DNA of 64,000 nucleotides. It comes from Bacillota bacterium. Its GTDB lineage: Bacteria > Bacillota > Sulfobacillia > Thermaerobacterales > RSA17. The stretch lies in NCBI GenBank assembly GCA_017577485.2, contig PKRI02000005.1, positions 1,005 through 65,004 on the forward strand, given 5' to 3'. Under the pieces are notes generated by a model. It saw only the letters and a program-made list of their open reading frames with translations. It ran no database searches and was not told the DNA's origin. Made by a program: the position numbers and the translations under genes. Of this stretch, positions 3,375 through 48,240 are shown one piece after another; the stretch's first letter is position 1, and each line of letters starts with the position of its first letter.

Positions 3375-3386
3375 GGTATTTCGTGG

Positions 3387-3427
3387 CGGCAGCCTGCCCG
3401 GCGTCCGGCACCGCTGCCGTGGTTTGT
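3387..3427 (+). terminator. Weak candidate intrinsic terminator after the LuxR-type gene
   Basis: 7-bp stem CGGCAGC (3387-3393) / GCTGCCG (3413-3419) followed by GTGGTTTGT. The loop is long and the T-tract poor. Confidence 0.3.
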
Positions 3428-3506
3428 CGGCAGGAGCCTGCACACCGGGCCGGGAACGCATGATGATTAGGAGCACAGTTGCAGCAACCCTGGGGAGGTT
3501 GAACTC

Positions 3507-4313: not shown

Positions 4314-4338
4314 TCCAGGCGCTGGGGGTGTTCCGTCG

Positions 4339-5298: not shown

Positions 5299-5349
5299 GG
5301 CCCCGCCGGCCTGAGGCCGACACCATGACGACTGGAGGGTCAACGAGCC

Positions 5350-7461: not shown

Positions 7462-7485
7462 ACGGGTGAGCCGGCGGCCCTGCCG

Positions 7486-8586: not shown

Positions 8587-8746
8587 TGGGGTCCACCTCC
8601 TGTCTTTGTCGTCGGTCGGCCGGGGGAATACGATTAGCGATTTCTGGTTGCGAGGGCGAAAATCCTTACGTTAGTATCGTTCCGGCTCTACTTAAGCCGG
8701 GAAGGCCCGGTGGTGCCGGGGCGGTCCGGCGGGGAGGTACAGCGAC

Positions 8747-9304
8747 GTGATTTCCACCAACGACCTGCGCAGCGGTCTGACCATCAACTTCGAAGACGGC
8801 GTTTACATGATCCTCGAGGCCGAACACGTCAAGCAGGGGCGGGGCTCCGCCTTCGTCAGGGTCCGCATGCGGAACGTCAAGACCGGCGCCACCATCAGCC
8901 GCACGCTGAGGGCCGGCGAGAAGGTCGAGCAGGCCGTCATCCAGAAGCGCGAGATGCAGTACCTCTACTCCAGCGGCGACGAGTACTACTTCATGGACAC
9001 GGAGACCTACGACCAGGTCCCCATCCGCGCCGAAGTGCTGGGCGACGCGCTGAAGTTCCTCAAGGAGAACATGGTGGTCCAGGTCCTGGAGTACGAGGGC
9101 AGCATCATCGGCGTGGAACTGCCCAACTCCGTGGAACTGCAGGTGGTCGAGACCGAGCCGGGCGTGCGGGGCGACACCGTCAGCGGCGGCACCAAGCCCG
9201 CCAAGCTGGAGACCGGCGCCGTGGTCCAGGTGCCGCTGTTCGTCAACACCGGCGACGTGATCCGGGTCGACACCCGCACCGGCCATTACCTGGGGCGCGT
9301 CTGA
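8747..9304 (+). CDS. efp: Translation elongation factor P
   Basis: Full-length similarity to Bacillus EF-P (MISTNDLRSGLTI..., VELQVVETEPGVRGDTVSGGTKPAKLETGAVVQVPLFVNTGDVIRVDTRTGHYLGRV). GTG start with GGGGAGG upstream. The loop tip reads KQGRG rather than KPGKG. Confidence 0.95.
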   Translation: MISTNDLRSGLTINFEDGVYMILEAEHVKQGRGSAFVRVRMRNVKTGATISRTLRAGEKVEQAVIQKREMQYLYSSGDEYYFMDTETYDQVPIRAEVLGDALKFLKENMVVQVLEYEGSIIGVELPNSVELQVVETEPGVRGDTVSGGTKPAKLETGAVVQVPLFVNTGDVIRVDTRTGHYLGRV

Positions 9305-9355
9305 GCCGGAGGTTGAGGCGGGCTGCCTGCCGAGACGTTCTGGACCGGCCTCGCC

Positions 9356-9808
9356 ATGGTGCTGATGGCCGTAGGCCTGATCGGGACCGTGGTCCCGGCG
9401 CTGCCGGGCGTGGCGCTGATCTTCGCCGGCGTGCTGGTCCACGCCTGGGGGACCGGCTTCACCGTGGTCAGCGGCCGGTTTGTGCTGGGCATGCTGGCCC
9501 TGACCGTGGCGGCCATGGCCGCCGACTACCTGACGGGCACCGTCATGGCCCGGCGGGCCGGCGCCTCGCGCTGGGGCGTGTGGGGCGCTTTCCTGGGCGG
9601 CGTGCTGGGGACGCTGGTGTTCGGACCCATCGGGCTGCTGGTGGGCCCGCTGCTGGGAGCGGTGGCCGGCGAGTTGCTGAGCGGCCGGAGCACCCAGCGG
9701 GCGGCCGAGGTGGGCTGGCGCGTGGTCGCCGGCGTCTGGATCGGCATCCTGCTGCAGATCGGCATCGGCCTGCTGATGGTGACGCTCTGGGCCGTGCGGG
9801 TGTTCTGA
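9356..9808 (+). CDS. Small integral membrane protein (DUF456-like)
   Basis: 150 aa with four hydrophobic segments and a Gly-rich pattern (GPIGLLVGPLLGAVAGELL) typical of the DUF456 family. The family name is from recollection only. Confidence 0.6.
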   Translation: MVLMAVGLIGTVVPALPGVALIFAGVLVHAWGTGFTVVSGRFVLGMLALTVAAMAADYLTGTVMARRAGASRWGVWGAFLGGVLGTLVFGPIGLLVGPLLGAVAGELLSGRSTQRAAEVGWRVVAGVWIGILLQIGIGLLMVTLWAVRVF

Positions 9809-9877
9809 CGGAGGGCGGTTTGAACGGCCCGGGATGGGTCGAAGCGGCGAACCTGCGGTGAGCAGGCGGTCATCCGG

Positions 9878-9910
9878 CGGCGCCGGCAGGAACCCGGCGC
9901 CGTTTTGTTG
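9878..9910 (+). terminator. Rho-independent terminator after efp / DUF456 gene
   Basis: Perfect 9-bp GC stem CGGCGCCGG (9878-9886) / CCGGCGCCG (9894-9902) with a 7-nt loop, followed by TTTTGTTG. Confidence 0.75.
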
Positions 9911-9920
9911 TAATGGATAT

Positions 9921-9936
9921 TTGAAGATTTGCTCAA
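9921..9936. promoter_or_regulatory. Candidate ArsR/SmtB-type operator upstream of the metal-efflux pair
   Basis: AT-rich island (GGATATTTGAAGATTTGCTCAATTGTTCG) in a GC-rich background. It contains the imperfect inverted repeat TTGAAG-N4-GCTCAA about 90 nt upstream of the ArsR-family gene. Confidence 0.3.
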
Positions 9937-10023
9937 TTGTTCGCCGCTTTGTCCGCATCGTGAACGCGGCCGCCGCAGGCGGGACCGCGGCGCCGCGAGC
10001 GATGGGATGCCAGTCCTGATGAG

Positions 10024-10368
10024 GTGCACGAGGAGGAGTGTGACGATCCCGTGAAGGCTGCCGCCGCGGAACCGGAGCCCCGGCCCGCAGGCGACGAGGT
10101 GGAGCGCCTGGCCGAGATCTTCGGGGCCATCGCCGATCCCACACGGATCCGCATCCTGACCGCCCTCAGCGCCGGCGAGCGGGCCGCCGGCGATCTGGCC
10201 CGGCTTGTGGGCCTGACGCCGTCGGCCGTATCCCACCAGCTTCGCCTGCTGCGCAACCTGCGCCTGGTGCGCAAGCGGCGCGTGGGGCGCCACGCCTACT
10301 ACGCGCTGGACGACGACCACGTGGTCCAACTGCTGCGCCAGGGCCTGGAGCACGTGCGCCATGGCTGA
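10024..10368 (+). CDS. ArsR/SmtB-family metalloregulator (alpha-5 site type, CzrA-like)
   Basis: The wHTH sequence is IFGAIADPTRIRILTAL...LARLVGLTPSAVSHQLRLLRNLRLV. There is no CVC in helix 3. C-terminal D/H ligands (LDDDHVVQLLRQGLEHVRH) are present. The gene overlaps the ATPase start. Confidence 0.85.
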   Translation: MHEEECDDPVKAAAAEPEPRPAGDEVERLAEIFGAIADPTRIRILTALSAGERAAGDLARLVGLTPSAVSHQLRLLRNLRLVRKRRVGRHAYYALDDDHVVQLLRQGLEHVRHG

Positions 10369-12598
10369 GGACGTGGTGGTCAGCCGCTACCGCGTGGCGG
10401 GCCTCACCTGCGCCGACTGCGCCGAGACGGTGCGGCGGGCGGTGTCGGCCGTGGAGGGCGTGGACGAGGTGGAGGTGTCCTTCGCCACCGGCCTGATGCG
10501 GGTGGCTCACCACCGCCCCGTTGACGCGGAGGTGGTGGCGGCGGTGCGGCGGGCCGGCTACCGGGCGGAACGGGTCGACGGCGCCGGTGCCGCCGCAGAG
10601 CACGGCGGCGAGGCCTGGTGGCGCGGGTCCCGGGCGCCGGCGACGCTGCTGTCGGGGCTGCTGGCGGCCGGCGGCTTCCTGGCCTCGACGCTGGAGGCCG
10701 GGCAGCCCTGGGCCGTGACGGCCTGGGCCGCGGCCATCGTCGTAGGCGGCCTGCGGCCCGCCCGGGGTGCCTGGACGGCGCTGCGCCAGCGGCACATCGA
10801 CATGAACGTCCTCATGACCCTGGCGGTCGTGGGCGCGGCGGCCATCGGCGAGTGGAGCGAGGGCGCCGCCGTGGTGTTCCTGTATTCCCTGGGAGAGCTG
10901 CTGGAGGAGGCCGCGGTCGCCGGCACCCGCCGGTCCATCCGCCACCTGATGAACCTGACGCCCCCCGAGGCCGAGGTGCTGCGCGACGGCCGGGTCGTGC
11001 CGGTGCCGGTGGCGGAAGTCCGGGTGGGCGAGCGGGTGCTGGTGCGGCCCGGCGGCCGCGTGCCGGTGGACGGGCGCATCGCCGCCGGCCGGGCCGCCCT
11101 CAACGAGGCCCCCATCACCGGCGAGGCCGCGGCCGTCGACAAGGGACCCGGCGACGAGGTCTTCGCCGGCACCGTCAGCGAGAACGGCTACCTGGAAGTG
11201 GACGCCCTCCGGGTGGCCGGCGACACCACCCTGAGCCGCATCATCCACATGGTGGAGGAGGCCCAGCAGCGGCGCGCCCGGGTCCAGCGCTGGATCGACG
11301 ACTTCGCCCGGCGCTACACGCCGGCGGTGGTGGCGGCCGCTGCCCTGGTGGCCGTGGTCCCGCCGCTTTGCGGGGCACCCTGGGAACCCTGGCTTTACCG
11401 GGGACTGGCGCTGCTGATCCTGGCCTGCCCCTGCGCGCTGGTGATCTCGACGCCGGTGGCGGTGGTCAGCGCCATCGGCCGCGCCGCCCGCTGGGGCGTG
11501 CTGATCAAGGGCGGTGCCCACCTGGAGGCCCTGAGCCGCGTGCGGGTGGTGGCCCTGGACAAGACCGGCACGCTGACCCTGGGCCGCCCCCAGGTAACGG
11601 ACGCGGTGCCGCTGGACGACGTGGCGCGGCTGGACGGGGCCGCGCCCGGCGCCCCCACCGACCGCCTGCTGGCCCTGGCCGCTGCGGCCCAGATGCCGTC
11701 GGAGCACCCGCTGGGGCGGGCCGTGGTGGCCGCGGCGCGGGCCCGGGGCCTCGAGCCGGCGCCGCCGGAATCCTTTGAGGTCTATCCGGGGCAGGGCGTC
11801 CGGGCCCGCGTCCAGGGCATGGACGTGGTGGTGGGCACCCTGGCTTTCGCAGCCGCCCAGGCCGGCCTGGACCCGTCCGCTGCCGCCGCTCCCGCCTCCG
11901 CCCTGGAGGCCGGGGGCAAGACCGTGGTGGCCGTGGCCCGCCTGGCCAGCCCCGGGCGTCCCGCCTGCTGGCTGGGCCTCATCGCCCTGGCCGACGAGAT
12001 CCGCCCCGGGGCGGCCGCGCTGATCAGCCGGCTGCGGGCGGCAGGGGTCCGCCGCATCGTCATGCTCACCGGCGACGCCGAGCCCGCCGCCCGCCGGGTG
12101 GCGGCGGCGGTGGGCATCGACGAGGTACGCTGCCGGCTGCTGCCGGAGGGCAAGATGCGGGCAATCGAGGCCCTGGAGGCGGAAGAGGGCGGCGGGGTCC
12201 TCTACGTGGGCGACGGCATCAACGACGCGCCGGCCCTGGCCCGGGCCTCGGTAGGGGTGGCCATGGGCGCGGCCGGCACCGCCGCCGCCGTGGAAACCGC
12301 CGGCGTGGTCCTGATGGGAGACGACCTGGACCGGCTGCCGCGGGCCCTGGACCTGGCCCGCCGGGCCCTGGGGGTCATCCGCCAGAACGTGGCGTTCTCG
12401 CTGGCGGTCAAGGCGGCGGCGCTGGTCCTGCTGGCGGCCGGCCGCCTGTCGCTGTGGCTGGCCATCGCCGCCGACACCGGCGCGACGCTGGTGGTCGTCG
12501 CCAACGGGCTGCGCCTGCTGCGGGCCCCCGCCGGTCACGAACGGCGGGCTCCGGAGCCGGCCGCCGACACCACCGCCCCCAGCCGCACCACGGCGTAG
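10361..12598 (+). CDS. Heavy-metal P1B-type ATPase (Zn/Cd/Co-type exporter)
   Basis: N-terminal HMA domain GLTCADCA, TM6 CPC motif (ACPCALVISTP), phosphorylation site DKTGTLT and hinge GDGINDAPAL. Confidence 0.92.
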   Translation: MAEDVVVSRYRVAGLTCADCAETVRRAVSAVEGVDEVEVSFATGLMRVAHHRPVDAEVVAAVRRAGYRAERVDGAGAAAEHGGEAWWRGSRAPATLLSGLLAAGGFLASTLEAGQPWAVTAWAAAIVVGGLRPARGAWTALRQRHIDMNVLMTLAVVGAAAIGEWSEGAAVVFLYSLGELLEEAAVAGTRRSIRHLMNLTPPEAEVLRDGRVVPVPVAEVRVGERVLVRPGGRVPVDGRIAAGRAALNEAPITGEAAAVDKGPGDEVFAGTVSENGYLEVDALRVAGDTTLSRIIHMVEEAQQRRARVQRWIDDFARRYTPAVVAAAALVAVVPPLCGAPWEPWLYRGLALLILACPCALVISTPVAVVSAIGRAARWGVLIKGGAHLEALSRVRVVALDKTGTLTLGRPQVTDAVPLDDVARLDGAAPGAPTDRLLALAAAAQMPSEHPLGRAVVAAARARGLEPAPPESFEVYPGQGVRARVQGMDVVVGTLAFAAAQAGLDPSAAAAPASALEAGGKTVVAVARLASPGRPACWLGLIALADEIRPGAAALISRLRAAGVRRIVMLTGDAEPAARRVAAAVGIDEVRCRLLPEGKMRAIEALEAEEGGGVLYVGDGINDAPALARASVGVAMGAAGTAAAVETAGVVLMGDDLDRLPRALDLARRALGVIRQNVAFSLAVKAAALVLLAAGRLSLWLAIAADTGATLVVVANGLRLLRAPAGHERRAPEPAADTTAPSRTTA

Positions 12599-37156: not shown

Positions 37157-37288
37157 CCCCCTGCGGCCAGCCTGGGACTGAGACCTTCGCCGCCCACCCG
37201 ACCCCTCATGGCATGGGATGGGGCCCGGCCGGGGCGAACACCACGACCGCCGGAACACCCACCCCCACCCTGCAGGTGAATTTCGAAA

Positions 37289-37315
37289 CGAGTCGTATAC
37301 GATTTCATGTACGAA
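37289..37315. promoter_or_regulatory. Operator-like AT-rich motif, copy 1 (upstream of livH-like gene)
   Basis: CGAGTCGTATACGATTTCATGTACGAA contains the perfect palindrome TCGTATACGA (37293-37302) followed by the related TCATGTACGA. It matches the copy at 43660-43686 at 25 of 27 positions. Confidence 0.6.
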
Positions 37316-37356
37316 GTTTTTTCGGCTCAGCATCAAGACGAAGCAGGGGATTGCGT

Positions 37357-38256
37357 ATGTCACTTGAGCAGAGGCTCATCCAGCTTCTTGCCACCGGCAT
37401 CAGCAACGGGGCCATCTACGCCCTGCTGGGCCTGGGCCTGGTGGTGGTCTACAGCACCACCCGCATCGTCAACGTGGCCATCGGCGAGTTCGCCACCTTC
37501 GGCGCCCTGATCACCGTCAGCCTGCTGGCGGCCGGCGTGCCCTTCCCGGTGGCCATCCCGGCGGCGCTGGCGGCGGTGATGGTGCTGGCCGCCGGCGTGT
37601 ACCGGGTGGCCCTGCAGCCGGCCCGGCAGAAGAGCGCCGGGGGCCTGACGCTGCTGATCATCAGCATCGCCCTGCACCTGGCCCTCAAGGGCGTCGCCCT
37701 GATCCTCTGGGGCACCCGGTCCTACACCCTGCCGGCGTTCACGCCGGGCACCGTCAGGATCTCCCTGGCGGTGCTGCAGAAGCAGCACCTCTGGATCCTG
37801 GGGCTGGCCGCGCTGGTGATGCTGGCCCTGTGGTTGGGGTTCAACTACACGGTGCGGGGGCGGGCGCTGCGGGCGTCGGCGGTCAACCCGGTGGGCGCGC
37901 GGCTCATGGGCATCCCCGTCATGGCCATGGGCGGGGCGGCCTTCGCCCTGAGCGCGGGCCTGGCGGCCCTGAGCGGCGTCATGATCACGCCGCTGTCCCT
38001 GGCCACCTACGACATGGGCTTCATGCTGGGCCTCAAGGGCTTCGTGGGCGCGGTCCTGGCCGGCCTGCACAATTACCCGGTCACGGTGCTGGGCTGCCTG
38101 TTCCTGGGTGTGGTCGAAGCCATGGCGGCCGGCCTGCTGCCTTCGGGTTACCGGGATGCCGTGGCCTTCATCATGCTCATCGCCGTCCTGCTCTGGCGGG
38201 CGCTGCCCGCGCTGCGTCACGGCGTGCTCTACAGTGAGGAGGCGGTCCGCGAATGA
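37357..38256 (+). CDS. livH: Branched-chain-amino-acid-type ABC transporter permease (LivH family)
   Basis: LIQLLATGISNGAIYALLGLGLVVVYSTTRIVNVAIGEF..., RALRASAVNP..A.LMGI. The start is ATG 37357 inside track ORF 36904..38256. Confidence 0.88.
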   Translation: MSLEQRLIQLLATGISNGAIYALLGLGLVVVYSTTRIVNVAIGEFATFGALITVSLLAAGVPFPVAIPAALAAVMVLAAGVYRVALQPARQKSAGGLTLLIISIALHLALKGVALILWGTRSYTLPAFTPGTVRISLAVLQKQHLWILGLAALVMLALWLGFNYTVRGRALRASAVNPVGARLMGIPVMAMGGAAFALSAGLAALSGVMITPLSLATYDMGFMLGLKGFVGAVLAGLHNYPVTVLGCLFLGVVEAMAAGLLPSGYRDAVAFIMLIAVLLWRALPALRHGVLYSEEAVRE

Positions 38257-41075
38257 CGGGCTCAACAGCCGCCGCGCCGGGCCGGCATTACCGGTGGCTG
38301 GCCGCCGCCGGCCTGGTGCTGTGGGCCGTCCTGCCGCTGCTGCTGGCCGGCCGGCTGTCGCTGTCGATCTTCATCCTCATCTACCTGTACGCCACCATCG
38401 CCATCGGGCTCAGCCTGCTGGCCGGGTACGCCGGCCAGGTGTCCCTGGGCCAGGCCGCCTTCTACGGGCTGGGCGCCTACATCACCGGCATCCTGACCGT
38501 CCACGCCGGCCTGTCGCCCTGGCTGTCGTTCCCCGCCGCGGTGCTGGGCACCGGCCTGCTGGCCTACGTGGTGGGCGCGCCGATCCTGATGCTGCGGGGC
38601 CACTACCTGGTGGTGGGGACCCTGGGCCTCAACATCGTGGTCACCGTGCTGTTCCGCCAGCTGTACGGGCTCACCGGCGGTCCCAGCGGCCTGACCGGCA
38701 TCCTGCCCTTCAGCATCGGTGACGTGGTCCTGCGGGGCAACGTGGTCTATTACTACGCCTCGGGCCTCTTGATGCTGGCGGCGGCCTGGATGTCGTCCAA
38801 CCTGATCCGTTCCCGCTTCGGCCGCGCGCTGCAGGCCATCCACGCCAGCGAGACGGCCGCCGAGAGCGCCGGCATCGATCCCACCCGTCACAAGCTTCTG
38901 GTCTTCGTGTGGAGCGCGGTGCTGGCGGCGGCGGCCGGGGCCATGTACGCCCATTACGTCGGGTTCATCAGTCCCTCGCCCTTCGGCTTTGAGTTCTCCG
39001 TGCAGCTTCTGATGATGGCGGTCATCGGCGGCATCGCCTCGGTGCCGGGCGCCGTCCTGGGCGCGGCGCTGGCCGTGCTGCTGCGGGAAGGGCTGCGCAG
39101 CGTGATCCCGCTGCTGGTGGGCGCCAGCGCCGCCGAGTACGAGATCGTGGTCTTCGGCGTGCTGCTGGCGGCCGTGGTGATCCTGAGCCCCGAGGGGCTC
39201 TGGCCGCGGATCAGCCGCTGGCTGGACCGGGTTCTGGCCGGGCGCCCGGCGGCCGCCGGGGCCGGGTCCGGTGTCCCTGCCCGCCAGCCCGTGCCCCCGA
39301 TGGGGAACGTGGTCCGCCTGCCCCAGGATGCGGCCGCCCGGGCCGCCGCCCCGCACGGCAGCCCGGCGCCGGCGAACCCCGCTGCCGCCAACCCTGCGCC
39401 GGTGCGCGTGCTGCCGGGTCCCGCGGCGAACACGGCCGCCAACCCGGGTGCCGCCAACCCGGCGGCTGCGAGCACGGCTGCCGGGAACCCGGGCGGCGGG
39501 CCCGCCGGCTCCCGCGAGCCGCTGCTGAAGGTGGAAGGGTTGACCCGGCGCTTCGGCGGCCTGGTGGCGGTCCGCGACCTGTCCTTCGAGGTGTACCCCG
39601 GCGAGATCTTTGCCATCATGGGCCCCAACGGCGCCGGCAAGACCACGCTCTTCAACATGATTTCGGGCGTGCTCAGGCCCACCTCGGGCCGCATCCTGCT
39701 GGACGGCCGCCCCATCGACGGCCTGCCGGCCCACCGCGTGGCTGCCCTGGGCGTGGCCCGCACGTTCCAGACCCCGAGGCTTTTCCCGCTGCTGGACGCG
39801 GCCGAGAACGTGATGGTGGGCCTGCACCAGCACCTGCGCGCGGGCTTCGCCGTTTCCGCGCTGCGCATGACTGGGCGTGAAGAGGCCGCGGCCCGGTCCC
39901 GGGCTCTGGACGCCCTGGTCCAGGTGGGCAGCCCGGAACTGGCGCCGCAGCCGGTGGATGCACTGCCCTTCGGCGCCCACCGCATGATCGAGCTGGCGCG
40001 GGCGCTGGCGGCTCGGCCCCGCCTGCTGCTGCTGGATGAGCCGGCGTCAGGCCTCACCGGTGCCGAGCGCCAGGAACTGGCCCGGCTGATCCGCCAGGTG
40101 AGGGATGCCGGCGTCACCGTCATCCTGGTGGAGCACGATGTGCCTTTCCTGATGCAGCTGGCCGACCGCGTGCTGGTGGTCCACCACGGGGAGGCCATCG
40201 CCCAGGGCCTGCCGGGGCAGGTTCGCCGCGACCCACGGGTGATCGCCGCGTACCTGGGCGACGAGCAGGGCGGCGGCGACGACGGGGCGCCTCTGGACGG
40301 GGCCGCCGAGGCGAAGGCTCCCGACGCGATCCTGGAAGTTTCGAGCCTGTCGGCCGGGTACGGCCGGGTGCCCGTGCTGCGGGACGTGTCCTTCCAGGTG
40401 GGCGCCGGCGAGATCGTGGCGGTGCTGGGCGCCAACGGGGCCGGTAAGACCACGCTGATGCGGGCCGTCTGCGGCCTGCTGCCCGCCACCGGCAGCGTCC
40501 GGTACGAGGGCCGGGAAGTGCTGGGGCTGCCGGCGGAGCGCATCTCGGAACTGGGCATCGCCCTGGTGCCGGAGCGCCGGCAGTTGTTCGACACCATGTC
40601 GGTGGAGGACAACCTGATCCTGGGCGCCTACACCAGGTTCCGGGGCCGCGGAACCGACCCCGGCGCCGCCGCCGTTGCGCGGGACCTCCGGCATGTTTAC
40701 GACCTGTTCCCGATCCTTCACGAGAAGCGCCACCAGCCGGCCCGGTCGCTGTCCGGCGGGCAGCAGCAGATGCTGGCCATCGGGCGGGCCCTGATGGCCA
40801 GGCCGCGGGTGCTGCTGCTGGATGAGCCGCTGCTGGGCCTGGCGCCTCTGGTGGTGGCCGACATCCTCAACGTCATCCGCCGCATGCGTGATGACGGCCT
40901 GGCGGTGGTGCTGGTGGAGCAGAACGCAGCCACGGTTCTGCCCATCTGCGACCGGGCCTATGTCCTGGAGGCCGGGCGCATCGCCCTGTCGGGCGAGGCC
41001 CGGAGGCTCCGTCGCGCCCCGGAACTCCAGGCCGTGTTCCTGGGCGGGGCAGTGGGCGGGGAGGTGAGACGCTGA
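38253..41075 (+). CDS. Fusion protein: LivM-type permease plus LivG-type ATPase plus LivF-type ATPase in one 940-aa ORF
   Basis: This is a single uninterrupted track ORF. The LivM part shows GYAGQVSLGQAAFYGLGAY and RALQAIHASETAAESAGI. An Ala/Asn/Pro linker follows (about 39330-39510). NBD1 has GPNGAGKTT, FGAHRMIELARAL and LLLLDEPASGL. NBD2 has GANGAGKTT, LSGGQQQMLAIGRAL and LLLLDEPLLGL. Confidence 0.85.
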   Translation: MTGSTAAAPGRHYRWLAAAGLVLWAVLPLLLAGRLSLSIFILIYLYATIAIGLSLLAGYAGQVSLGQAAFYGLGAYITGILTVHAGLSPWLSFPAAVLGTGLLAYVVGAPILMLRGHYLVVGTLGLNIVVTVLFRQLYGLTGGPSGLTGILPFSIGDVVLRGNVVYYYASGLLMLAAAWMSSNLIRSRFGRALQAIHASETAAESAGIDPTRHKLLVFVWSAVLAAAAGAMYAHYVGFISPSPFGFEFSVQLLMMAVIGGIASVPGAVLGAALAVLLREGLRSVIPLLVGASAAEYEIVVFGVLLAAVVILSPEGLWPRISRWLDRVLAGRPAAAGAGSGVPARQPVPPMGNVVRLPQDAAARAAAPHGSPAPANPAAANPAPVRVLPGPAANTAANPGAANPAAASTAAGNPGGGPAGSREPLLKVEGLTRRFGGLVAVRDLSFEVYPGEIFAIMGPNGAGKTTLFNMISGVLRPTSGRILLDGRPIDGLPAHRVAALGVARTFQTPRLFPLLDAAENVMVGLHQHLRAGFAVSALRMTGREEAAARSRALDALVQVGSPELAPQPVDALPFGAHRMIELARALAARPRLLLLDEPASGLTGAERQELARLIRQVRDAGVTVILVEHDVPFLMQLADRVLVVHHGEAIAQGLPGQVRRDPRVIAAYLGDEQGGGDDGAPLDGAAEAKAPDAILEVSSLSAGYGRVPVLRDVSFQVGAGEIVAVLGANGAGKTTLMRAVCGLLPATGSVRYEGREVLGLPAERISELGIALVPERRQLFDTMSVEDNLILGAYTRFRGRGTDPGAAAVARDLRHVYDLFPILHEKRHQPARSLSGGQQQMLAIGRALMARPRVLLLDEPLLGLAPLVVADILNVIRRMRDDGLAVVLVEQNAATVLPICDRAYVLEAGRIALSGEARRLRRAPELQAVFLGGAVGGEVRR

Positions 41076-41148
41076 TCCGGTTCCTGAACGGTGACCGTCG
41101 TAGCGCTGTGCGCCAGCGCCGGTAATCGTGTCGAGGGGGGTACCGCCT

Positions 41149-42435
41149 TTGCGGAGGACAGTCTGGCGAAAGGTTTTCGGGGTCTGTCTCCTGATCCTGG
41201 CGCTGATCCTCACCGCCTGCGGCGGCGGTGGCGGCGGGACCGGTGGTTCCGGCGGCGGGAGCACCGGCGGTACGGGCAGCTCCGGTGGGACCGGCGGCTC
41301 CGGCGGCGACCAGGGCGGCCAGGGGACCGGCAGCGCCACGCCGATCCGCATCGGCCTGGTGTTCTCGATCACCGGGAACTCCAGCTCGCTGGGTGAGCCC
41401 GAGCGGAATACGGCGGAATTGTTCAAGGGCGACTGGACCGAGATCAACGGCCATCCCATCGAGTGGATCATCGAGGACGACCAGTCGGATCCCACCCAGG
41501 CCGTGGTGACGGTCCAGAGGCTGATCGAAGAGGACCAGGTGGCGGCGGTGGTCTGCTGCACCATCAGCCCGTCCAGCATGGCCATCCTGGACGTGGTCCA
41601 GCAGGCCGGCGTGCCCAACATCTCGGTGGCCGCTTCGGCCGCCATCGTCGAGCCCGTCAACGAGCGCTACTGGGTGTTTAAGACGCCGCAGAACGACGCG
41701 CTGATGATCGACATCATGACGGATTACATGGTGGCCCAGGGGCACCGCCGCATCGCCTTCATCGGCTTCAACGACGCCTACGGCGATGGGGGCCGCGTTG
41801 AGCTGGAGCGGCTGGCTCCGGGCAAGGGCCTCGAGATCGTGGCGGTGGAGTCCTTCGCCCGCGATGACACCGACACCACCGCCCAGGTCACCCGCATGGC
41901 CGCCCAGAATCCCGACGCTTTCCTGGTCTGGGCCATCCCGCCCGGGGCCAACGTGGCGCACCGGAACATCTATGACCTGCAGCTGCCCCAGCCCATTTAC
42001 CAGAGCCACGGCGTGGCCAACCGCCAGTTCATTGAACTGGGCGGCGACTCGGTGGAAGGGACGCTGATGCCGGCGGGCAAGCTGCTGGTGGCCGACCAGC
42101 TGCCCGACGATGACCCGCAGAAGGAACTGCTGCTGGCTTACCGCGACCGGTACGAGGCCCGCTACGGCCAGGGGACGGCCAACACCTTCGGCGGCCACGC
42201 CTGGGACGCCATGGCCATCCTGGCCCACGTGATCGAGAACGTCCTGAACGCCGGCGGTGATCCGGCCGACCTGCCCGCCTTCCGGGCGGCCATCCGCGAC
42301 GAGCTGGAGCGGGTGCAGGAGTTCGTGGGCATCTCCGGCATTTTCAACTACAGCGCCGGCGATCATCACGGCCTGGACCACAGGGCCGGCACCATGATCA
42401 CCATCCAGAACGGGAACTGGCAGATTCTCCCCTGA
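41149..42435 (+). CDS. LivK/LivJ-type periplasmic-binding lipoprotein (Leu/Ile/Val-binding family)
   Basis: The signal peptide carries the lipobox LILTAC-G and is followed by a long Gly/Ser/Thr linker. A type-I PBP core follows (IRIGLVFSITG...EDDQSDP..AV...L). The start is trimmed to TTG 41149 behind RBS GAGGGGGG. Confidence 0.85.
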   Translation: MRRTVWRKVFGVCLLILALILTACGGGGGGTGGSGGGSTGGTGSSGGTGGSGGDQGGQGTGSATPIRIGLVFSITGNSSSLGEPERNTAELFKGDWTEINGHPIEWIIEDDQSDPTQAVVTVQRLIEEDQVAAVVCCTISPSSMAILDVVQQAGVPNISVAASAAIVEPVNERYWVFKTPQNDALMIDIMTDYMVAQGHRRIAFIGFNDAYGDGGRVELERLAPGKGLEIVAVESFARDDTDTTAQVTRMAAQNPDAFLVWAIPPGANVAHRNIYDLQLPQPIYQSHGVANRQFIELGGDSVEGTLMPAGKLLVADQLPDDDPQKELLLAYRDRYEARYGQGTANTFGGHAWDAMAILAHVIENVLNAGGDPADLPAFRAAIRDELERVQEFVGISGIFNYSAGDHHGLDHRAGTMITIQNGNWQILP

Positions 42436-42456
42436 CGGGAACCTGCCGCGGCACCC

Positions 42457-42496
42457 GGGCCCCTGCCCACCGGCGGCAGGGGCCCGGTGTCCTTTG
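42457..42496 (+). terminator. Strong GC hairpin after the binding-protein gene (candidate terminator)
   Basis: Perfect 11-bp stem GGGCCCCTGCC (42457-42467) / GGCAGGGGCCC (42475-42485) with a 7-nt loop, followed by GGTGTCCTTTG. The T-tract is weak. Confidence 0.5.
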
Positions 42497-42559
42497 CCGG
42501 GTGCGCTGGGGCGGGCGCTGCCGGGGAGGCAGGGCGTGCGGGACGGAGGTAGGAATGGC

Positions 42560-43549
42560 GTGACGACGGGCACGGTATGGACCGATCCGCGCTTTCCGGG
42601 CGTGTCGTGCAGGCGGGTGGGGCCGGAGGCGCTGGACATGCTCCTGGAACTCAAGACCCGGCTGCAGCAGGACTACCTGCCGGACGCGCTGCCGGACTGG
42701 CTCAGGGACAGCCCCGGCGGCGTTTACGCCTACTACTATGAGGACCAACTCTGCGGCCTCTGCAGCATCCACATCCCGCGCCCCGGGGAGGCCTGGCTGC
42801 GGGGCAAGCGCATCGCCCTGGGCTTCGAGGGCAAGGGCATCGGCACGGCTACGGCGGTCTTTGAAATGGAGGAAGCCCGCCGGCTGGGTGCCCGGGTGGC
42901 CCGGCTGATCACGGAGGTGGGCAACGCCGCCGTCCACCGCATGATGCGGGAGAAACTGGGCTTTCGGGACATGGGCCGCTGGTGGGTGGCGGAGGGGCTG
43001 AACCCCGCCGCGCTGGGCCGGACGGGCACCGAACCCGGCGCCCCGGCGGTGGCGGTGCTGGCGCCCGGCCGTCCCGCCGACGGGGACGCGGCGAAGGCCC
43101 TGGCCGGCCTGGGGCCGCTGCTGGCCAGGCACGCCGGGGCCTGCGGCCTGGACGACCCGCAGCAGGGGGGTGAGCGCCCCGAGCAGCCCTGCTGGGGCCT
43201 TTGGGCCACCCTGGACGATCCCTACACGCTGGCCGGCTTCGGCCCCCAGGAACTGGAGGAAGCGCTGCGGGCCGGTTCCACCCTGGCGGTGGCAGGGCCG
43301 CCGTCGGCGCCCCGGGGCCTGGCCCTGCTGACGCCTTCGGAGGGATGGGGCCCGATCCTGCGGCTGTTCGTTGGGGCCGACGAAGCTGCCGTGGCCGCGC
43401 TGCGCGCATGGCTCCGGTCCCTGGACACCGGCCGCCTGGTGGCCAGCCTGCCCGCCGTCCACGCGGCGGCGCTGCTGGGCACGTCCCCTGAAGCCCTGAC
43501 GGAACGGGGCGGCACGCTCTTCGTGCTGTACCAGCAGGATCTGGCGTGA
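42560..43549 (+). CDS. GNAT-family N-acetyltransferase domain protein with an uncharacterised C-terminal half
   Basis: GTG start behind RBS GGAGGT (9-nt spacing). Acetyl-CoA motif-A-like sequence RIALGFEGKGIGTATAVFEMEEARRLGARVARLITEVGNAAVHRMMREKLGF. I do not recognise the C-terminal 200 aa. Confidence 0.6.
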   Translation: MTTGTVWTDPRFPGVSCRRVGPEALDMLLELKTRLQQDYLPDALPDWLRDSPGGVYAYYYEDQLCGLCSIHIPRPGEAWLRGKRIALGFEGKGIGTATAVFEMEEARRLGARVARLITEVGNAAVHRMMREKLGFRDMGRWWVAEGLNPAALGRTGTEPGAPAVAVLAPGRPADGDAAKALAGLGPLLARHAGACGLDDPQQGGERPEQPCWGLWATLDDPYTLAGFGPQELEEALRAGSTLAVAGPPSAPRGLALLTPSEGWGPILRLFVGADEAAVAALRAWLRSLDTGRLVASLPAVHAAALLGTSPEALTERGGTLFVLYQQDLA

Positions 43550-43659
43550 GGTCGGTGCTGGCCGGTCGGCTGGGGTATCGTTCCTGGTCGTGATCCGGCG
43601 GCTCTGGCGGCGTATCCACCTGGCGGGCCGGGCGGGTCCGGGCAGGGAAGCAGCCCGGC

Positions 43660-43686
43660 CGAGTCGTATATGATTTCATGTATGAA
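43660..43686. promoter_or_regulatory. Operator-like AT-rich motif, copy 2 (overlapping the gntR start)
   Basis: CGAGTCGTATATGATTTCATGTATGAA matches the copy at 37289-37315 at 25 of 27 positions. It overlaps both candidate ATG starts (43670 and 43682) of the GntR-family gene. Confidence 0.6.
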
Positions 43687-44356
43687 CAAGCAGGAACGGG
43701 CCTACGCCGTCATCCGCGAGCGCATCATCGAAGGGGTCTACGGTCCGGGGTACCGCCTGGTGATCGACCAGCTGGCCCGGGAACTGGGCGTCAGCGCCCT
43801 GCCGGTCCGCGAGGCCATCCGCCGCCTGGAGGCCGAGGGATGGGTGGTCTTCCGCCCCAATGCCGGCGCCCAGGTGGCGCCGGTGGACCCCCAGCAGTGG
43901 GTGGAAACCATGGAGGTCCTGGCCGTGCTGGAGGGGGCGGCCACCTCCGCGGCGGCGCCCCACATCACGCCCGGCGACGTGGACCGGCTGCGGCAGATCA
44001 ACGACGCGATGCTGGCGGCGCTGGACGGCCACGACCTGCAGGCCTTCAGCGATCTCAATCGCCGCTTCCATTTCACCATCTACCGGCGGTGCCCCAACCA
44101 GTACCTGGTGGATGTGCTCACCCAGGCCTGGGACCGCCTGGACCAGATGCGCCGCACCATCTTCCACATCATCCCCAGCCGCGGCCGGGCTTCGTGCCTC
44201 GAGCACCAGCAGATCATCGACCTGCTGGCGGCGGGGACGCCGGCCGAAGAGATCGAGCGCGTGGTGCGCCAGCACAAGCAGCAGACCGTTGAGGCTTATC
44301 GCCGGAGGGCGGGGGCGCCCACCGCCGCCATCCAGGCCGGGAAAGGAGACGACTGA
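43682..44356 (+). CDS. GntR-family transcriptional regulator (FadR/FCD subfamily)
   Basis: The wHTH sequence is YAVIRERIIEGVYGPGYRLVIDQLARELGVSALPVREAIRRLEAEGWV. An FCD-type helical C-domain follows (NRRFHFTIYRRCPNQYLVDVL). The track start at 43670 is equally possible. There is no clear RBS, so the mRNA may be leaderless or have a short leader. Confidence 0.85.
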   Translation: MNKQERAYAVIRERIIEGVYGPGYRLVIDQLARELGVSALPVREAIRRLEAEGWVVFRPNAGAQVAPVDPQQWVETMEVLAVLEGAATSAAAPHITPGDVDRLRQINDAMLAALDGHDLQAFSDLNRRFHFTIYRRCPNQYLVDVLTQAWDRLDQMRRTIFHIIPSRGRASCLEHQQIIDLLAAGTPAEEIERVVRQHKQQTVEAYRRRAGAPTAAIQAGKGDD

Positions 44357-44358
44357 GC

Positions 44359-45357
44359 TTGCAGCGCAGGGATCCCTCCCGCCTGCGGGGGTCCATCGTG
44401 CCCATGGTGACCCCGTTCCGCGAGGACGGGAGCATCGACGACCGGACGCTGGTGGACCTGATCGAATGGCAGATCGAGAGCGGGAGCCACGGCATCTCGG
44501 TCACGGGCACCACCGGTGAGCCCAGTTCGCTGTCGCTGGAGGAACGGGAACACGTCATGGAGGTGGCGGCCCGGGCCGTGGCCGGCCGGGTGCCTTTCGT
44601 GCCCGGTACCGGCACCAACAACCTGGACGAAACCATCCGCCTGACGCGGGTGGCCGAGAAGCTGGGCGCCGACGCGGCCCTGGTGATCGTCCCTTATTAC
44701 AACCGGCCTTCCCAGGAGGGGCTCTACCGCTACTTCCGGGCACTTCACGACGCGGTGGAGATCCCCATCATCATCTACAACATCCCCGGGCGCACCGCCG
44801 TCAACATGGAGCCGGCGACCATGGCCCGGCTGCGCCGGGACTGCCGCAGGATCATCGGGGCCAAGGAGTCCAACAAGGACTTCGAGCACGTCAGCAAGGT
44901 GCTCCACCAGTGCGGGCGGGACTTCCTGGTTTACAGCGGCATCGAGCTGCTGTGCTACCCGATGCTGGCCATCGGCGGCGCGGGGCACGTCAGCGCCACG
45001 GGCAACGTCTTCCCCCGCGAGGTGGCGGACCTCTACAACCTGGTGGCTGCCGGGCGCTGGGCCGAGGCCATCGACCTTCATTATTTCCTGCTGCCCATGA
45101 ACGAGGCGCTGTTCCTGGAGACCAACCCGGGACCCCTAAAGTGGGTCCTGGCCCAGATGGGCAAGATCAAGCCGGTCTGGCGGCCGCCGCTGTGCGAGCC
45201 GTCCCCGGAGAACCAGCAGCGGATCCGGGCGGTGATGGCGTCGTACGGGCTGCTGCCGGCGGCGCCGGGGGACGCTGCGGGCAGCGCGGCGCAGGCCGGC
45301 GGCGACGGCCGGGCCGGCGGCGCGGCCGGCACGGGCGGCGAGGGTGGTCGGGCATGA
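44359..45357 (+). CDS. DapA/DHDPS-family class I (Schiff-base) aldolase/synthase
   Basis: GSIVPMVTPF.EDGSID, GISVTGTTGE..SLS..E, VPYYNRPSQEGLY.YF and IIYNIPGRT are present. A catalytic Lys is expected in IIGAKESN. The substrate is unknown. Confidence 0.8.
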   Translation: MQRRDPSRLRGSIVPMVTPFREDGSIDDRTLVDLIEWQIESGSHGISVTGTTGEPSSLSLEEREHVMEVAARAVAGRVPFVPGTGTNNLDETIRLTRVAEKLGADAALVIVPYYNRPSQEGLYRYFRALHDAVEIPIIIYNIPGRTAVNMEPATMARLRRDCRRIIGAKESNKDFEHVSKVLHQCGRDFLVYSGIELLCYPMLAIGGAGHVSATGNVFPREVADLYNLVAAGRWAEAIDLHYFLLPMNEALFLETNPGPLKWVLAQMGKIKPVWRPPLCEPSPENQQRIRAVMASYGLLPAAPGDAAGSAAQAGGDGRAGGAAGTGGEGGRA

Positions 45358-46103
45358 AGCAGGCCCGTTTCCTGTCCCGCGGGCGGCTTCACATGGGCCG
45401 GCTGGTGGAGCCCGGCGTCCTGGTGGACGAGGGGGGACGGGCCCACCGGGAGGACGACGTCACCTTCCTGCCGCCGGTGGAGCCCGGCAAGGTCATCGGC
45501 CTGGCGCTGAACTTCGCCGACCACGCCGCGGAACTGAACATGCAGTCCCCCGAGGAACCGGCCCTCTTCTTCAAGCCGGGCAACACCCTGGTGGGCCACC
45601 GCGCCCCGGTGGTCTATCCCCGGGGCGTCCAGTTCATGCATTACGAGGTGGAACTGGCGGTGGTCATCGGCTGCCGCTGCCGCCGGGTGGACGAGTCGCG
45701 GGCCTTCGATGTGGTCAAGGGCTACACCATCGCCAACGACGTCACGGTTCGCGATTTCGTACACAACTTCTACCGGCCGCCGGTACGGGCCAAGGGGTTC
45801 GACACCTTCGGCCCCATGGGGCCCTACCTGGTCACGGCCGACGAGGTCGAGGATCCCCACCGGCTGGGCCTCCGGGCCTACGTCAACGGTGAACTGCGGC
45901 AGGAAGGGAACACCGCGCAGATGCTGCGCAAGATCCCGGAGTTGATCGCCTTCATCACCAGTTTCATGACCCTGGACCCCGACGACGTGATCCTGACCGG
46001 CACGCCGAAGGGCATCTCCCACGTGCGGCCGGGCGACGTGATGCGCCTGGAGATCGACGGCCTCGGCGCGCTGGAAAACCCGGTCATCGCCGAGGAGGGG
46101 TAG
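45354..46103 (+). CDS. Fumarylacetoacetate hydrolase (FAH) family hydratase/isomerase/decarboxylase
   Basis: ATGA overlap with the upstream gene. Signatures include KVIGLALNFADHAAE, FFKPGNTLVGH, YEVELAVVIG, ANDVTVRD, KGFDTFGPMGP and DVILTGTPKG. Confidence 0.85.
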   Translation: MKQARFLSRGRLHMGRLVEPGVLVDEGGRAHREDDVTFLPPVEPGKVIGLALNFADHAAELNMQSPEEPALFFKPGNTLVGHRAPVVYPRGVQFMHYEVELAVVIGCRCRRVDESRAFDVVKGYTIANDVTVRDFVHNFYRPPVRAKGFDTFGPMGPYLVTADEVEDPHRLGLRAYVNGELRQEGNTAQMLRKIPELIAFITSFMTLDPDDVILTGTPKGISHVRPGDVMRLEIDGLGALENPVIAEEG

Positions 46104-46104
46104 C

Positions 46105-47562
46105 ATGGCGGTGCGAACGGGCGCGGAGTTTATCGAGAACCTGCGGACGGCGCCCCGAGATGTGCAGGTCCACGGGGAGCGGCTGCGCAGCGGCATCGCC
46201 GACCACCCGGCCTTCCGCAGCCTGGTCCGGTCGTACGCGCGGCTCTACGACCTGCAGCACGAGCCCGCGCTGCGCGACATCATGACCTACCCGTCGCCCA
46301 CCAGCGGCGAGCCGGTGGGCGTGTCGTTCCTGATGCCCCAGACCCGTGAGGACCTGGAAAAGCGCAGCCGCATGATCAAGGTGTGGGCCGACCACAGCTT
46401 CGGCATGCTGGGCCGGACCGCCGACTACCTCAACGCCGCCGTCATGGCCATGGCCGGTGCCGCCGACTGGTTCGCCGCCGCCGACCGCCGCTTCGGCGAG
46501 AACATCCGGAAGTATTACGAGTACATCCGCGAGAACGACCTGCTGCTGACCCACACGCTGATCAATCCCCAGGCCAACCGGTCGCAGGGGCCGTCGGGCC
46601 AGGCCGATCCCTACCTGGCGGCCCGCATCGTGCGGGAGACCGACCGCGGCATCGTGATCCGCGGGGCGCGGATGCTGGCCACCCTGGGGCCCATCGCCGA
46701 CGAGATCATGGTCTTCCCCTCGACACTGCTGAAGGCCCGGCCCGAGGACGCGCCCTACTCCTACGCCTTCGCCATCCCGTGCGACACGCCGGGCCTGCGC
46801 TTCATCTGCCGCGAGTCCTTCGACTACGGCCGGGGCACCTTCGACCACCCGCTGGGGTCCCGTTTCGACGAGAACGACGCGGTGGTCATCTTCGACGACG
46901 TCGAGGTGCCCTACGAGCGCTGCTTCATGATCGGGCACCCCGAACTGTGCAACGCGCTCTACAGCGAGACCACCGCCGTGGTGCACATGACCCACCAGGT
47001 GGTGGTCAAGAACATCGCCAAGACCGAGTTCATCCTGGGCCTGGTGTCGCTGCTGACCGACGCCATTCAAATTGAGAGGTTCCAGCACGTCCAGGAGAAG
47101 ATCGCCGAGGTCATCATCGCGCTGGAGTTCCTGCGGTCGGCCCTGCGGCGGGCCGAGGTGGACGCGGCTCCCAACCGCTGGGGCGTGATGACGCCGGCCT
47201 GGCCGCCCCTCAATGCGGCCCGCAACTGGTACCCGAAGATCTACCCGCGTTTCGTGGAGATCATCAAGCAGCTGGGCGCCAGCGGCCTGATGCAGATCCC
47301 CACGGAGGCCGACGTCTTCGGGGACGCCCGGGACGACGTGGAGCGCTACATGCAGGCGGCGACCCTGGGCGGCGTGGAGCGGGTCAAGCTGTTCCGGCTG
47401 GCCTGGGACGTGGCCATCTCGGCCTTCGGCAACCGCCAGGCCCTTTACGAGTACTTCTTCTTCGGCGACCCGGTGCGGATGGCCGGCGCCCTGGTCAACA
47501 GCTACGACCGCAAGCCGTACATGGAGCGGGTGCGGGAGTTCCTGGCCGGGGACGGGTGGTAA
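46105..47562 (+). CDS. hpaB: 4-hydroxyphenylacetate 3-monooxygenase oxygenase component family (HpaB-like, two-component flavin monooxygenase)
   Basis: 485 aa. Signatures include RTGAEFIENLR, VYDLQHEP and TADYLNAAVMAM. The overall length and pattern resemble Thermus-type HpaB. Confidence 0.8.
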   Translation: MAVRTGAEFIENLRTAPRDVQVHGERLRSGIADHPAFRSLVRSYARLYDLQHEPALRDIMTYPSPTSGEPVGVSFLMPQTREDLEKRSRMIKVWADHSFGMLGRTADYLNAAVMAMAGAADWFAAADRRFGENIRKYYEYIRENDLLLTHTLINPQANRSQGPSGQADPYLAARIVRETDRGIVIRGARMLATLGPIADEIMVFPSTLLKARPEDAPYSYAFAIPCDTPGLRFICRESFDYGRGTFDHPLGSRFDENDAVVIFDDVEVPYERCFMIGHPELCNALYSETTAVVHMTHQVVVKNIAKTEFILGLVSLLTDAIQIERFQHVQEKIAEVIIALEFLRSALRRAEVDAAPNRWGVMTPAWPPLNAARNWYPKIYPRFVEIIKQLGASGLMQIPTEADVFGDARDDVERYMQAATLGGVERVKLFRLAWDVAISAFGNRQALYEYFFFGDPVRMAGALVNSYDRKPYMERVREFLAGDGW

Positions 47563-47802: not shown

Positions 47803-48195
47803 TCAGGCGGGCCCGTTGCCGTACATGGCGTCGGTCTTGGCGGCCATGATGAGGTCGTTCATGTGCAGGTCCTGGATTTTGTGCGTCCACCAGTCCACGG
47901 TCACGCGCCCCCATTCCAGCACCAGGCGGGGGTGGTGACCCTCCCGCTCGGCCAGTTCCGCCACGCGGTTGGTGAAGTCCAGCGCCTCGGCGAAGTCCTT
48001 GAAGGTGAAGATCCGGCGCAGCCTGCGAGAACCGCCGTCCACCAGCACGGTCCAGTCAGGGATCTGGGACCGGTACCGCGCCAGTTCCTCGGCGGTCACC
48101 GCCGGCGCACCCGCCTGGCAGGGCACGCAGCGCCCCGCCGCCAGCTGCCCGCCGGGGTCGATGTCCCCGCTGCCGCTGCGTTCGCTGTCGGACAT
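47803..48195 (-). CDS. phhB: Pterin-4a-carbinolamine dehydratase (PCD/DCoH)
   Basis: FKDFAEALDFTNRVAELAEREGHHPRLVLEWGRVTVDWWTH is the PCD signature. The start is trimmed to ATG 48195 behind RBS GGGAGGAGG. Confidence 0.85.
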   Translation of the reverse strand: MSDSERSGSGDIDPGGQLAAGRCVPCQAGAPAVTAEELARYRSQIPDWTVLVDGGSRRLRRIFTFKDFAEALDFTNRVAELAEREGHHPRLVLEWGRVTVDWWTHKIQDLHMNDLIMAAKTDAMYGNGPA

Positions 48196-48240
48196 GGGTT
48201 GCCTCCTCCCGCCGGCCATCCAGGCCCGTAATACCGCCCT

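Follow-up and report, generated by a model that had tools for sequence, protein, structure and literature searches.

The 64,000-nt stretch of DNA analyzed here (referred to as the window; G000:C24:1005–65004) comes from an uncultured Thermaerobacter relative with a very high G+C content, of which the assembly (G000) spans 2,009,463 bp in 101 contigs (72% G+C, 97.6% complete). It contains a 27-nt element in two nearly identical copies, located respectively in front of a transporter operon (livH, a livM-livG-livF fusion, and the gene for a substrate-binding protein (SBP), i.e., livH-livMGF-SBP) and at the start of gntR, the first gene of the gntR-hpaI-hpaG-hpaB cluster. Both copies are examined here as a candidate control region shared by the two operons. 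For comparison, use was made of relatives such as Thermaerobacter marianensis DSM 12885 (G003) and the metagenome-assembled genome (MAG) GCA_036381855.1, in which the transporter and gntR are situated on two contigs (L064 and L077, respectively), and of an unrelated MAG, GCA_014896375.1 (G041, of the same genus as G016, with its transporter at locus L066).

Two operons headed by the same 27-nt element

Direct reading of the window placed copy 1 (CGAGTCGTATACGATTTCATGTACGAA) at 37289–37315 (+) and copy 2 (CGAGTCGTATATGATTTCATGTATGAA) at 43660–43686 (+), and bore out the first-pass annotation in that both are identical at 25 of 27 positions, with the two mismatches being C/T differences inside TAYGA. 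A search of the window allowing up to three mismatches returned only these two copies, and shuffling the window 100 times with dinucleotides preserved yielded no match to the 27-mer. Likewise, no further copy was present in the whole 2,009,463-bp assembly, where the next-best 27-mers had at least eight mismatches, and a genome scan with a 24-bp position weight matrix (PWM) scored the copies at 45.5 and 42.5 bits versus 20.1 bits for the best match on any other sequence. Because the shuffles came up empty, the genome holds just two copies, and the gap in PWM score is large, the motif is real, far beyond chance, and not dispersed. Both chance recurrence (considered very unlikely from the outset) and a dispersed repeat were thereby ruled out, the latter in part by the genome-wide PWM search that had been proposed. 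The similarity between the copies breaks off sharply at the borders of the 27-mer. The initial G+C estimate of about 41% was correct for copy 1 (11/27) but not for copy 2, which is even lower at 33% (9/27), compared to 72% for the genome.

Copy 1 also contains the 10-bp palindrome and related decamer 2 nt further on that had been described, in the form of the perfect palindrome TCGTATACGA, followed by TT and then TCATGTACGA. Only one other perfect TCGTATACGA decamer occurs in the genome (contig C66, position 11694), which read as a 12-mer (CTCGTATACGAC) scores just 13.9 bits and has no second box next to it.

The gntR gene (43682–44356, +) encodes a 224-aa regulator (N-terminus MNKQERAY) that combines a PF00392 winged helix-turn-helix (residues 4–65; 62.1 bits vs. 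a cut-off of 27) with a PF07729 FCD domain (residues 75–198; 92.8 bits vs. a cut-off of 24.3), so that its designation as a FadR/FCD-type GntR protein stands. Its nearest solved structures are FCD regulators as well (i.e., 7xp0, McbR 4p9f, and TM0439 3fms; E-values of 7e-19 to 4e-14).

The genes behind gntR, initially listed as DapA-like, FAH-family, and HpaB-like, indeed form a cluster with it, and each of the three exceeds the cut-off of a curated hpa equivalog model. Specifically, hpaI (44359–45357, +) encodes a DapA-fold 2,4-dihydroxyhept-2-ene-1,7-dioate aldolase (TIGR02313; 433.9 bits vs. a cut-off of 396.7), hpaG (45354–46103, +) an HpaG-C-type isomerase/decarboxylase of the FAH family (TIGR02303; 335.2 bits vs. 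276.4), and hpaB (46105–47562, +) the oxygenase component of 4-hydroxyphenylacetate 3-monooxygenase (TIGR02309; 671.9 bits vs. 480.2). These model scores assign the catabolic trio to the 4-hydroxyphenylacetate/homoprotocatechuate pathway, for which a DapA-type aldolase is the expected HpaI and no oddity. The substrate, earlier called not obvious and possibly an aromatic or hydroxylated amino acid, is in fact fairly obvious from the hpa models together with the aromatic-acid-type binding protein of the transporter (see below).

HpaD is encoded elsewhere in the genome (G000:C46:3247–4143; TIGR02295, 422.1 bits vs. a cut-off of 321.4), outside the motif regulon. It is paired there with a second HpaB-1 gene (689 bits; C46 (L033) 3160–5892, − for the pair) that likewise goes without the motif, no third site being found in the 107-nt promoter region of this locus nor elsewhere on the contig. 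The pair is divergent from a Crp/Fnr-like regulator gene and adjoins genes for PaaX and paaA/C/D (6000–10437, +), and the hpa pathway in this genome is split over at least two differently regulated loci.

A gene for pterin-4a-carbinolamine dehydratase comes right after hpaB but is read from the other strand (47803–48219, −), and G041 likewise has a Pterin_4a gene (L066 16007–16291) within a few kb of its transporter. Such neighbors might point to phenylalanine/tyrosine hydroxylation as a process that feeds into the hpa route.

In the transporter operon, the livH start codon is located at 37357, with copy 1 ending 41 nt before it and a Shine-Dalgarno-like CAGGGGA (37344–37350, +) standing 6 nt before it (CAGGGGATT being kept in L064). 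The livH-type permease (299 aa; 37357–38256, +; PF02653, 100 bits) is 85% identical in L064 and 58% identical in T. marianensis. The second gene (38253–41075, +) encodes a 940-aa LivM-LivG-LivF fusion (PF02653 plus two PF00005 domains, with matches to the LivG and LivF models), and since the same fusion recurs in L064 (899 aa), in L066 (896 aa), and in T. marianensis, this comparison marks it as a stable trait of the transporter clade and not an assembly artefact. The third gene (41128–42435, +; PF13458, 159 bits) encodes a substrate-binding lipoprotein of the Peripla_BP_6 aromatic-acid clade, the best PDB matches of which (3sg0, 4dqd, 3ukj, 3tx6, and 4jb0) reach E-values of about 1e-67 to 1e-57, compared to only 2e-9 for E. 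coli LivJ (1z15). This binding protein is therefore nearer to solved aromatic-acid binders than to Leu/Ile/Val binders; 4JB0, for instance, is the Rhodopseudomonas palustris CouP protein with ferulate bound (PMC3610893). By this relationship, the substrate of the importer likely belongs to the aromatic carboxylate class. A terminator-like hairpin with a 13-bp stem (42455–42487, +) closes the operon, and L064 has a comparable GC-rich hairpin behind its binding-protein gene.

Box anatomy, putative promoters, and the gntR start

Each copy of the 27-mer reads better as two abutting 12-mers, i.e., box 1 (GTCGTATAYGAT), at the heart of which lies the palindrome TCGTATACGA (perfect in copy 1), and box 2 (TTCATGTAYGAA), the latter having the form TTC-N6-GAA. 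In copy 1 these correspond to GTCGTATACGAT (37292–37303, +) and TTCATGTACGAA (37304–37315, +), and in copy 2 to GTCGTATATGAT (43663–43674, +) and TTCATGTATGAA (43675–43686, +). The consensus wTCrTATAyGAw was derived from a pool of 20 boxes (10 sites, seven genomes) to which the reverse complements had been added, and has T2, C3, G10, and A11 nearly invariant around a TATA center.

FadR-subfamily operators are A/T-rich palindromes of the form NyGTNxACNy (with x = 2–3), for which weaker extra boxes at 7–12 nt from the site center have been described (PMC4494728). Box 1 of the window (TCGT-AT-ACGA, x = 2) has this shape, its GT/AC arms being 2 nt apart, and the adjacent extra box lies 12 nt from the center. 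The local repressors of this subfamily (GntR, HypR, LldR, and PdhR groups; Suvorova et al. 2015, PMC4494728) moreover carry the same PF00392 and PF07729 pair, and have sites before both the operon of the regulator itself and a transporter operon. They differ from the system described here in the outer arm (TC/GA here vs. the usual TKGT/ACMA), in the dinucleotides of the Thermaerobacter orthologs (CT/AG for GT/AC), and in the target pathway, which here is that of 4-hydroxyphenylacetate. The first-pass label of an operator-like motif was incomplete, as the 27-mer also carries a putative –10 hexamer.

Indeed, a promoter scan in G005 identified TTGGCA-18-TATGAT, with the –10 hexamer being the right half of box 1, and direct reading of the same position in G008 gave TTGACA-17-TACGGT. 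Since a simple sigma-70 scan found a consensus promoter only in G005, and none at either window site, in G008, or in G003, the promoters proposed for the window are based on homology and spacing. By this homology, the putative –10 hexamers of the window are TACGAT (37298–37303) in box 1 of copy 1 and TATGAT (43669–43674) in box 1 of copy 2. Box 2 would then cover about –6 to +6, which in copy 1 includes the predicted +1 (about 37310–37312). Further upstream, the –35 region of livH contains a GCAGGTG box (37272–37278, +) that matches TTGACA poorly and is invariant between the window and L064 even though the neighboring bases differ. At the –35 position of gntR, 11 nt upstream of box 1, lies a AGGGAAGC box (43644–43651, +) that is unlike TTGACA and of which the AGGGAA is invariant in five lineages amid varying bases.

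These conserved, non-canonical –35-region boxes suggest unusual promoter recognition and, together with a TAnnnT hexamer that is appropriately spaced from the gntR ATG, could be taken to mean that the 27-mer is a duplicated core promoter only (a –10 and discriminator, possibly served by an alternative sigma factor or dependent on an activator), which would give the two operons a common promoter strength without a dedicated repressor site. However, two abutting dyad-symmetric boxes are unexpected from a promoter alone, the genome contains just two such sites, and distant orthologous loci keep the palindrome at varying distances, in other promoter contexts, and in one case inverted. A mere core promoter is consequently considered quite unlikely.

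With regard to the start of gntR, copy 2 covers the in-frame ATG codons at 43670 and 43682, i.e., the two candidates pointed out before, plus an out-of-frame ATG at 43678. The window protein aligns from residue 1 with its G008 ortholog, in which an ATG preceded by a ribosome-binding site (RBS) also gives MNKQERAY, and the corresponding start codon in the window (43682–43684) falls within box 2, 7 nt past TATGAT. The "MISC" extension added by gene callers (P0001, P0002, and P0004) corresponds to translated box 1 and box 2. No in-frame ATG, GTG, or TTG occurs between the stop codon at 43550 and position 43670, and the sole purine-rich box upstream of the gntR ATG, AGGGAAGC, ends 18 nt short of ATG 43670 and 30 nt short of ATG 43682, which is too far for an RBS. 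An RBS-led start further upstream was ruled out on these grounds, and the absence of a Shine-Dalgarno sequence, as noted in the first-pass annotation, was upheld.

The lack of a Shine-Dalgarno sequence and the presence of a –10 hexamer 6–8 nt before the start codon are the sequence hallmarks of leaderless transcripts. Thermaerobacter relatives have gntR leaders of about 90–130 nt with good RBSs, in contrast to the G000 lineage, which has no leader. Because the leader is missing and box 2 itself supplies the ATG, a leaderless gntR mRNA is plausible. One of the two differences between the copies in fact makes the gntR start codon (TACGAA in copy 1 vs. TATGAA in copy 2, i.e., ACG to ATG), and the other (TACGAT to TATGAT) brings the –10 hexamer of copy 2 nearer to the consensus. 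It might even be that box 2, the transcription start, and the gntR start codon are one and the same sequence in this lineage, with the loss of a leader of ~100 nt having fused TTCATGTAYGAA to ATGAAC and having led to a leaderless, self-repressed mRNA, a scenario for and against which we consider the chances evenly balanced. If true, this would constitute a clean natural case of an operator on which protein binding, promoter function, and coding all impose constraints simultaneously, and would also illustrate how an operator is copied upon the split of an operon.

In L077 (about 380–402; GCA_036381855.1), a 12-nt in-frame insertion (ATGAACAGGCAC) separates box 2 from the annotated gntR start. 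The insertion leaves the operator ATG in frame and resembles a second copy of the ATGAAC start region.

Conservation of the box and predicted control of both operons

The comparative genomics proposed at the outset revealed boxes upstream of gntR orthologs as well as at livH. At gntR, the site is invariant bar one R position in five lineages (with GntR proteins being 69–100% identical), amid diverged intergenic surroundings (alignment A1). At livH, L064 carries GAGTCGTATATGATTTCATGTACGAA 41 nt before the start codon, identical to copy 1 at 26 of 27 positions and with diverged flanks (alignment A2). The L064 binding protein is 87% identical to that of the window, and the gntR gene of the same MAG, on L077, has a site of its own.

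Further away, GntR orthologs are found in G003, G005, and G008 (61–64% identical, same order) and in G016 (47%), and each of these four genomes has one strong composite site, always upstream of gntR. G007 also has one strong site, on contig C157 and apart from its truncated gntR contig, with its placement relative to gntR being unconfirmed. Across the class, the ortholog is present in 23 of 201 sampled genomes, and the gntR-hpaI-hpaG order is seen in 13 of 16 further loci. Exactly one 12-mer of at least 15 bits was found in 11 of these 16 loci, all upstream of gntR (vs. 0.5 in total for block shuffles), with boxes such as ATCATATATGAT, ATCGTATACGAT, and ATCGTATAGGAT. Actinobacterial orthologs (47–50% identical, including that of Actinokineospora) also reside in hpa-like clusters, where ATCATATGCGAT-type boxes are located ~40 nt ahead of the gene that opens the operon. 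The winged helix-turn-helix segment is nearly invariant across all these GntR orthologs.

The link with the transporter recurs in different gene arrangements. In T. marianensis, the co-oriented cluster gntR-hpaI-hpaG-hpaE-hpaB-hpaD-livH-livMGF-SBP is preceded by one composite site, 134 nt upstream of gntR, and contains no other box. In G041, the only two strong sites of the genome are on different contigs, i.e., 75 nt upstream of gntR-hpaI-hpaG-hpaE-hpaB-hpaD (contig C12) and 45 nt upstream of livH-livMGF-SBP (contig C34). Judged by the placement of sites and genes, the predicted regulon is kept across linked, split, and unlinked arrangements. The proposal that GntR autoregulates and co-regulates the importer with the catabolic genes is therefore supported in silico by the uniqueness of the sites, their conservation footprints, the link with the ortholog, and the recurring association of transporter and hpa genes.

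On this basis, the 27-mer probably serves, and we hold this with good confidence, both as promoter and as the site bound by a GntR-type repressor, which would jointly control the aromatic-acid importer and the hpa operon. It would form a compact control region, in which a sigma-A-type –10 hexamer (TAYGAT) is contained within the primary 12-bp operator (box 1) and box 2 abuts it over the transcription start. The FCD-type GntR protein would bind both boxes as dimers, block RNA polymerase, and in this way repress gntR-hpaI-hpaG-hpaB as well as livH-livMGF-SBP. Repression is the likely sign of control because the boxes overlap the predicted –10 hexamer and +1, so that bound dimers would occlude RNA polymerase. 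Since effectors of FCD/FadR-subfamily regulators are typically carboxylic acids (PMC4494728), 4-hydroxyphenylacetate, homoprotocatechuate (i.e., 3,4-dihydroxyphenylacetate), or a later acid of the pathway is a likely inducer. Its binding to the FCD domain would release the repressor and thereby allow joint induction of uptake and of a portion of the homoprotocatechuate pathway.

Alternatively, the operator could be genuine but bound by another regulator, such as a MarR/HpaR-like protein, with the adjacency of gntR being coincidental. The characterized hpa repressor of E. coli W and Yersinia is the MarR-type HpaR (PMC7180172), and in G041 the livH-side site has as neighbors a divergent gene of the MarR family and one for a glyoxalase/extradiol dioxygenase. 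Nevertheless, the box tracks the gntR ortholog in nearly every genome examined, including ones without a nearby MarR gene, and its shape fits the GntR-family palindrome. In the window, moreover, no MarR gene lies beside either site, and the regulator has GntR and FCD domains only, instead of a MarR winged helix. Binding by such another regulator is hence deemed unlikely.

A number of observations nonetheless weigh against joint control by GntR. In G041, the livH-side site (L066) shares its intergenic region with the MarR-family and glyoxalase/extradiol dioxygenase genes just mentioned (L066 5661–6161 and 4687–5673, respectively, both −), so dual regulation or a second regulator may be at play there. 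The canonical GT/AC dinucleotides are absent from the Thermaerobacter boxes (TCCTATAGGA), and the T. marianensis cluster has large internal gaps that leave room for internal promoters, so that it may not be a single operon. In the window, neither promoter reaches the sigma-70 consensus, with GGTGAA and GGAAGC being poor –35 regions, and the conserved AGGGAAGC box occupies the –35 region of gntR. The regulon furthermore leaves out the second hpaB and hpaD on C46, and HpaE (best score of 517.5 bits vs. a cut-off of 638) and HpaC (53.7 vs. 206) stayed below threshold in the 97.6%-complete assembly. Generic aldehyde dehydrogenases and a flavin-reductase-like gene are present in the genome, and the pathway may be complete through such non-orthologous enzymes.

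No characterized GntR-type hpa regulator was found in the literature searched, the coverage of which excluded RegPrecise and most subscription journals. HpaR, which acts on the hpa-meta operon in E. coli W and Yersinia, does the same job as proposed here for GntR, i.e., that of a local repressor of homoprotocatechuate meta-cleavage genes that is relieved by pathway aromatics (PMC7180172). It nevertheless belongs to an unrelated family (vs. GntR/FCD here), has a different operator, and governs a different gene set, with the system in the window having a DapA-type HpaI (TIGR02313), an HpaB-1 type oxygenase (TIGR02309), and uptake by an ATP-binding cassette (ABC) importer. In E. coli, the permease used is HpaX, of the major facilitator superfamily.

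As for the transporter, the R. palustris Liv-type hydroxycinnamate importer CouPSTU (PMC3610893; PDB 4JB0, 4JB2, and 4F8J) has a closely related binding protein (E-value of about 1e-58), and shares the Peripla_BP_6 fold family, the HAAT-type set of permeases and ATPases, and the link to aromatic-acid catabolism. It differs in that the gene context in the window suggests hydroxyphenylacetates rather than coumarate or ferulate as substrates, and in that LivM, LivG, and LivF are fused here in one 940-aa protein under predicted GntR control. CouPSTU itself is controlled by the MarR-type CouR. A GntR-family precedent for aromatic meta-cleavage is BphS, the repressor of biphenyl meta-cleavage genes, which acts on several operator boxes around the promoter and is relieved by a pathway intermediate. 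BphS and the window GntR differ in orthologous group, pathway, and operator sequence.

Conceptually, the proposed control is textbook local repression, with the probably leaderless overlap of start codon and operator as the sole unusual detail. It yields a testable regulon of two operons and one repressor for the use of 4-hydroxyphenylacetate in this uncultured lineage, and a likely aromatic-acid substrate class for a Liv-type importer that annotation pipelines label as "branched-chain amino acid". In addition, it defines wTCrTATAyGAw as the conserved operator of a GntR ortholog group that goes with gntR-hpaI-hpaG modules in Bacillota and Actinobacteria, which could improve regulon annotation. 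Given its origin in a thermophile-related lineage, the repressor-operator pair might also serve as a biosensor for 4-hydroxyphenylacetate or homoprotocatechuate.

Gene order around the two copies

Compared to the single-site cluster of T. marianensis, the transporter in the G000 lineage lies upstream of gntR, where it makes up an operon by itself and has a second copy of the putative control region in front of it. The gene orders of close relatives are HAD-MatE-GNAT-gntR in L058 and MatE-livH-livMGF-SBP-GNAT in L064, versus HAD-livH-livMGF-SBP-GNAT-gntR in the window. L058 lacks the transporter and has a single site. The window copies have in common a CGA ahead of box 1 and, within box 2, an A, both of which are missing from the L058 ortholog, and this hints at duplication or concerted change.

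In L058 (4076–5419), the MatE efflux gene is flanked by those for the HAD hydrolase and GNAT, and in L064 (1–303) it is situated upstream of livH. No such gene is present at 37157–37356 of the window.

The same arrangement raises the question whether the copies are mere cassette-boundary scars, devoid of a regulatory role and dating from an event in which the segment from livH to GNAT was inserted or recombined. They are direct repeats, 6.4 kb apart, that flank livH-livMGF-SBP-GNAT; close relatives vary between transporter and MatE at this place; and the extra CGA and box 2 A are common to both copies and absent from the L058 ortholog. Yet L058, with GNAT and a single site and without the transporter, is unlike the product of recombination between repeats, one-copy relatives keep the same sequence at gntR, and the G041 sites are on different contigs. 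Both sites, moreover, are under purifying selection relative to their flanks. An origin by duplication is in itself compatible with operator function and does not substitute for it. Given how the genes are arranged in L058 and L064, and that the G041 sites are unlinked, cassette-boundary scars were rejected as a very improbable explanation of the two copies.

Finally, the gene between the transporter operon and gntR encodes a GNAT-like acetyltransferase (42494–43549, +; PF00583, 36.8 bits) of which the start is uncertain. A GNAT gene directly precedes gntR in L058, L061, L063, and L075, and in L064 it comes after the gene for the binding protein. With no motif in front of it, the gene is probably outside the regulon.

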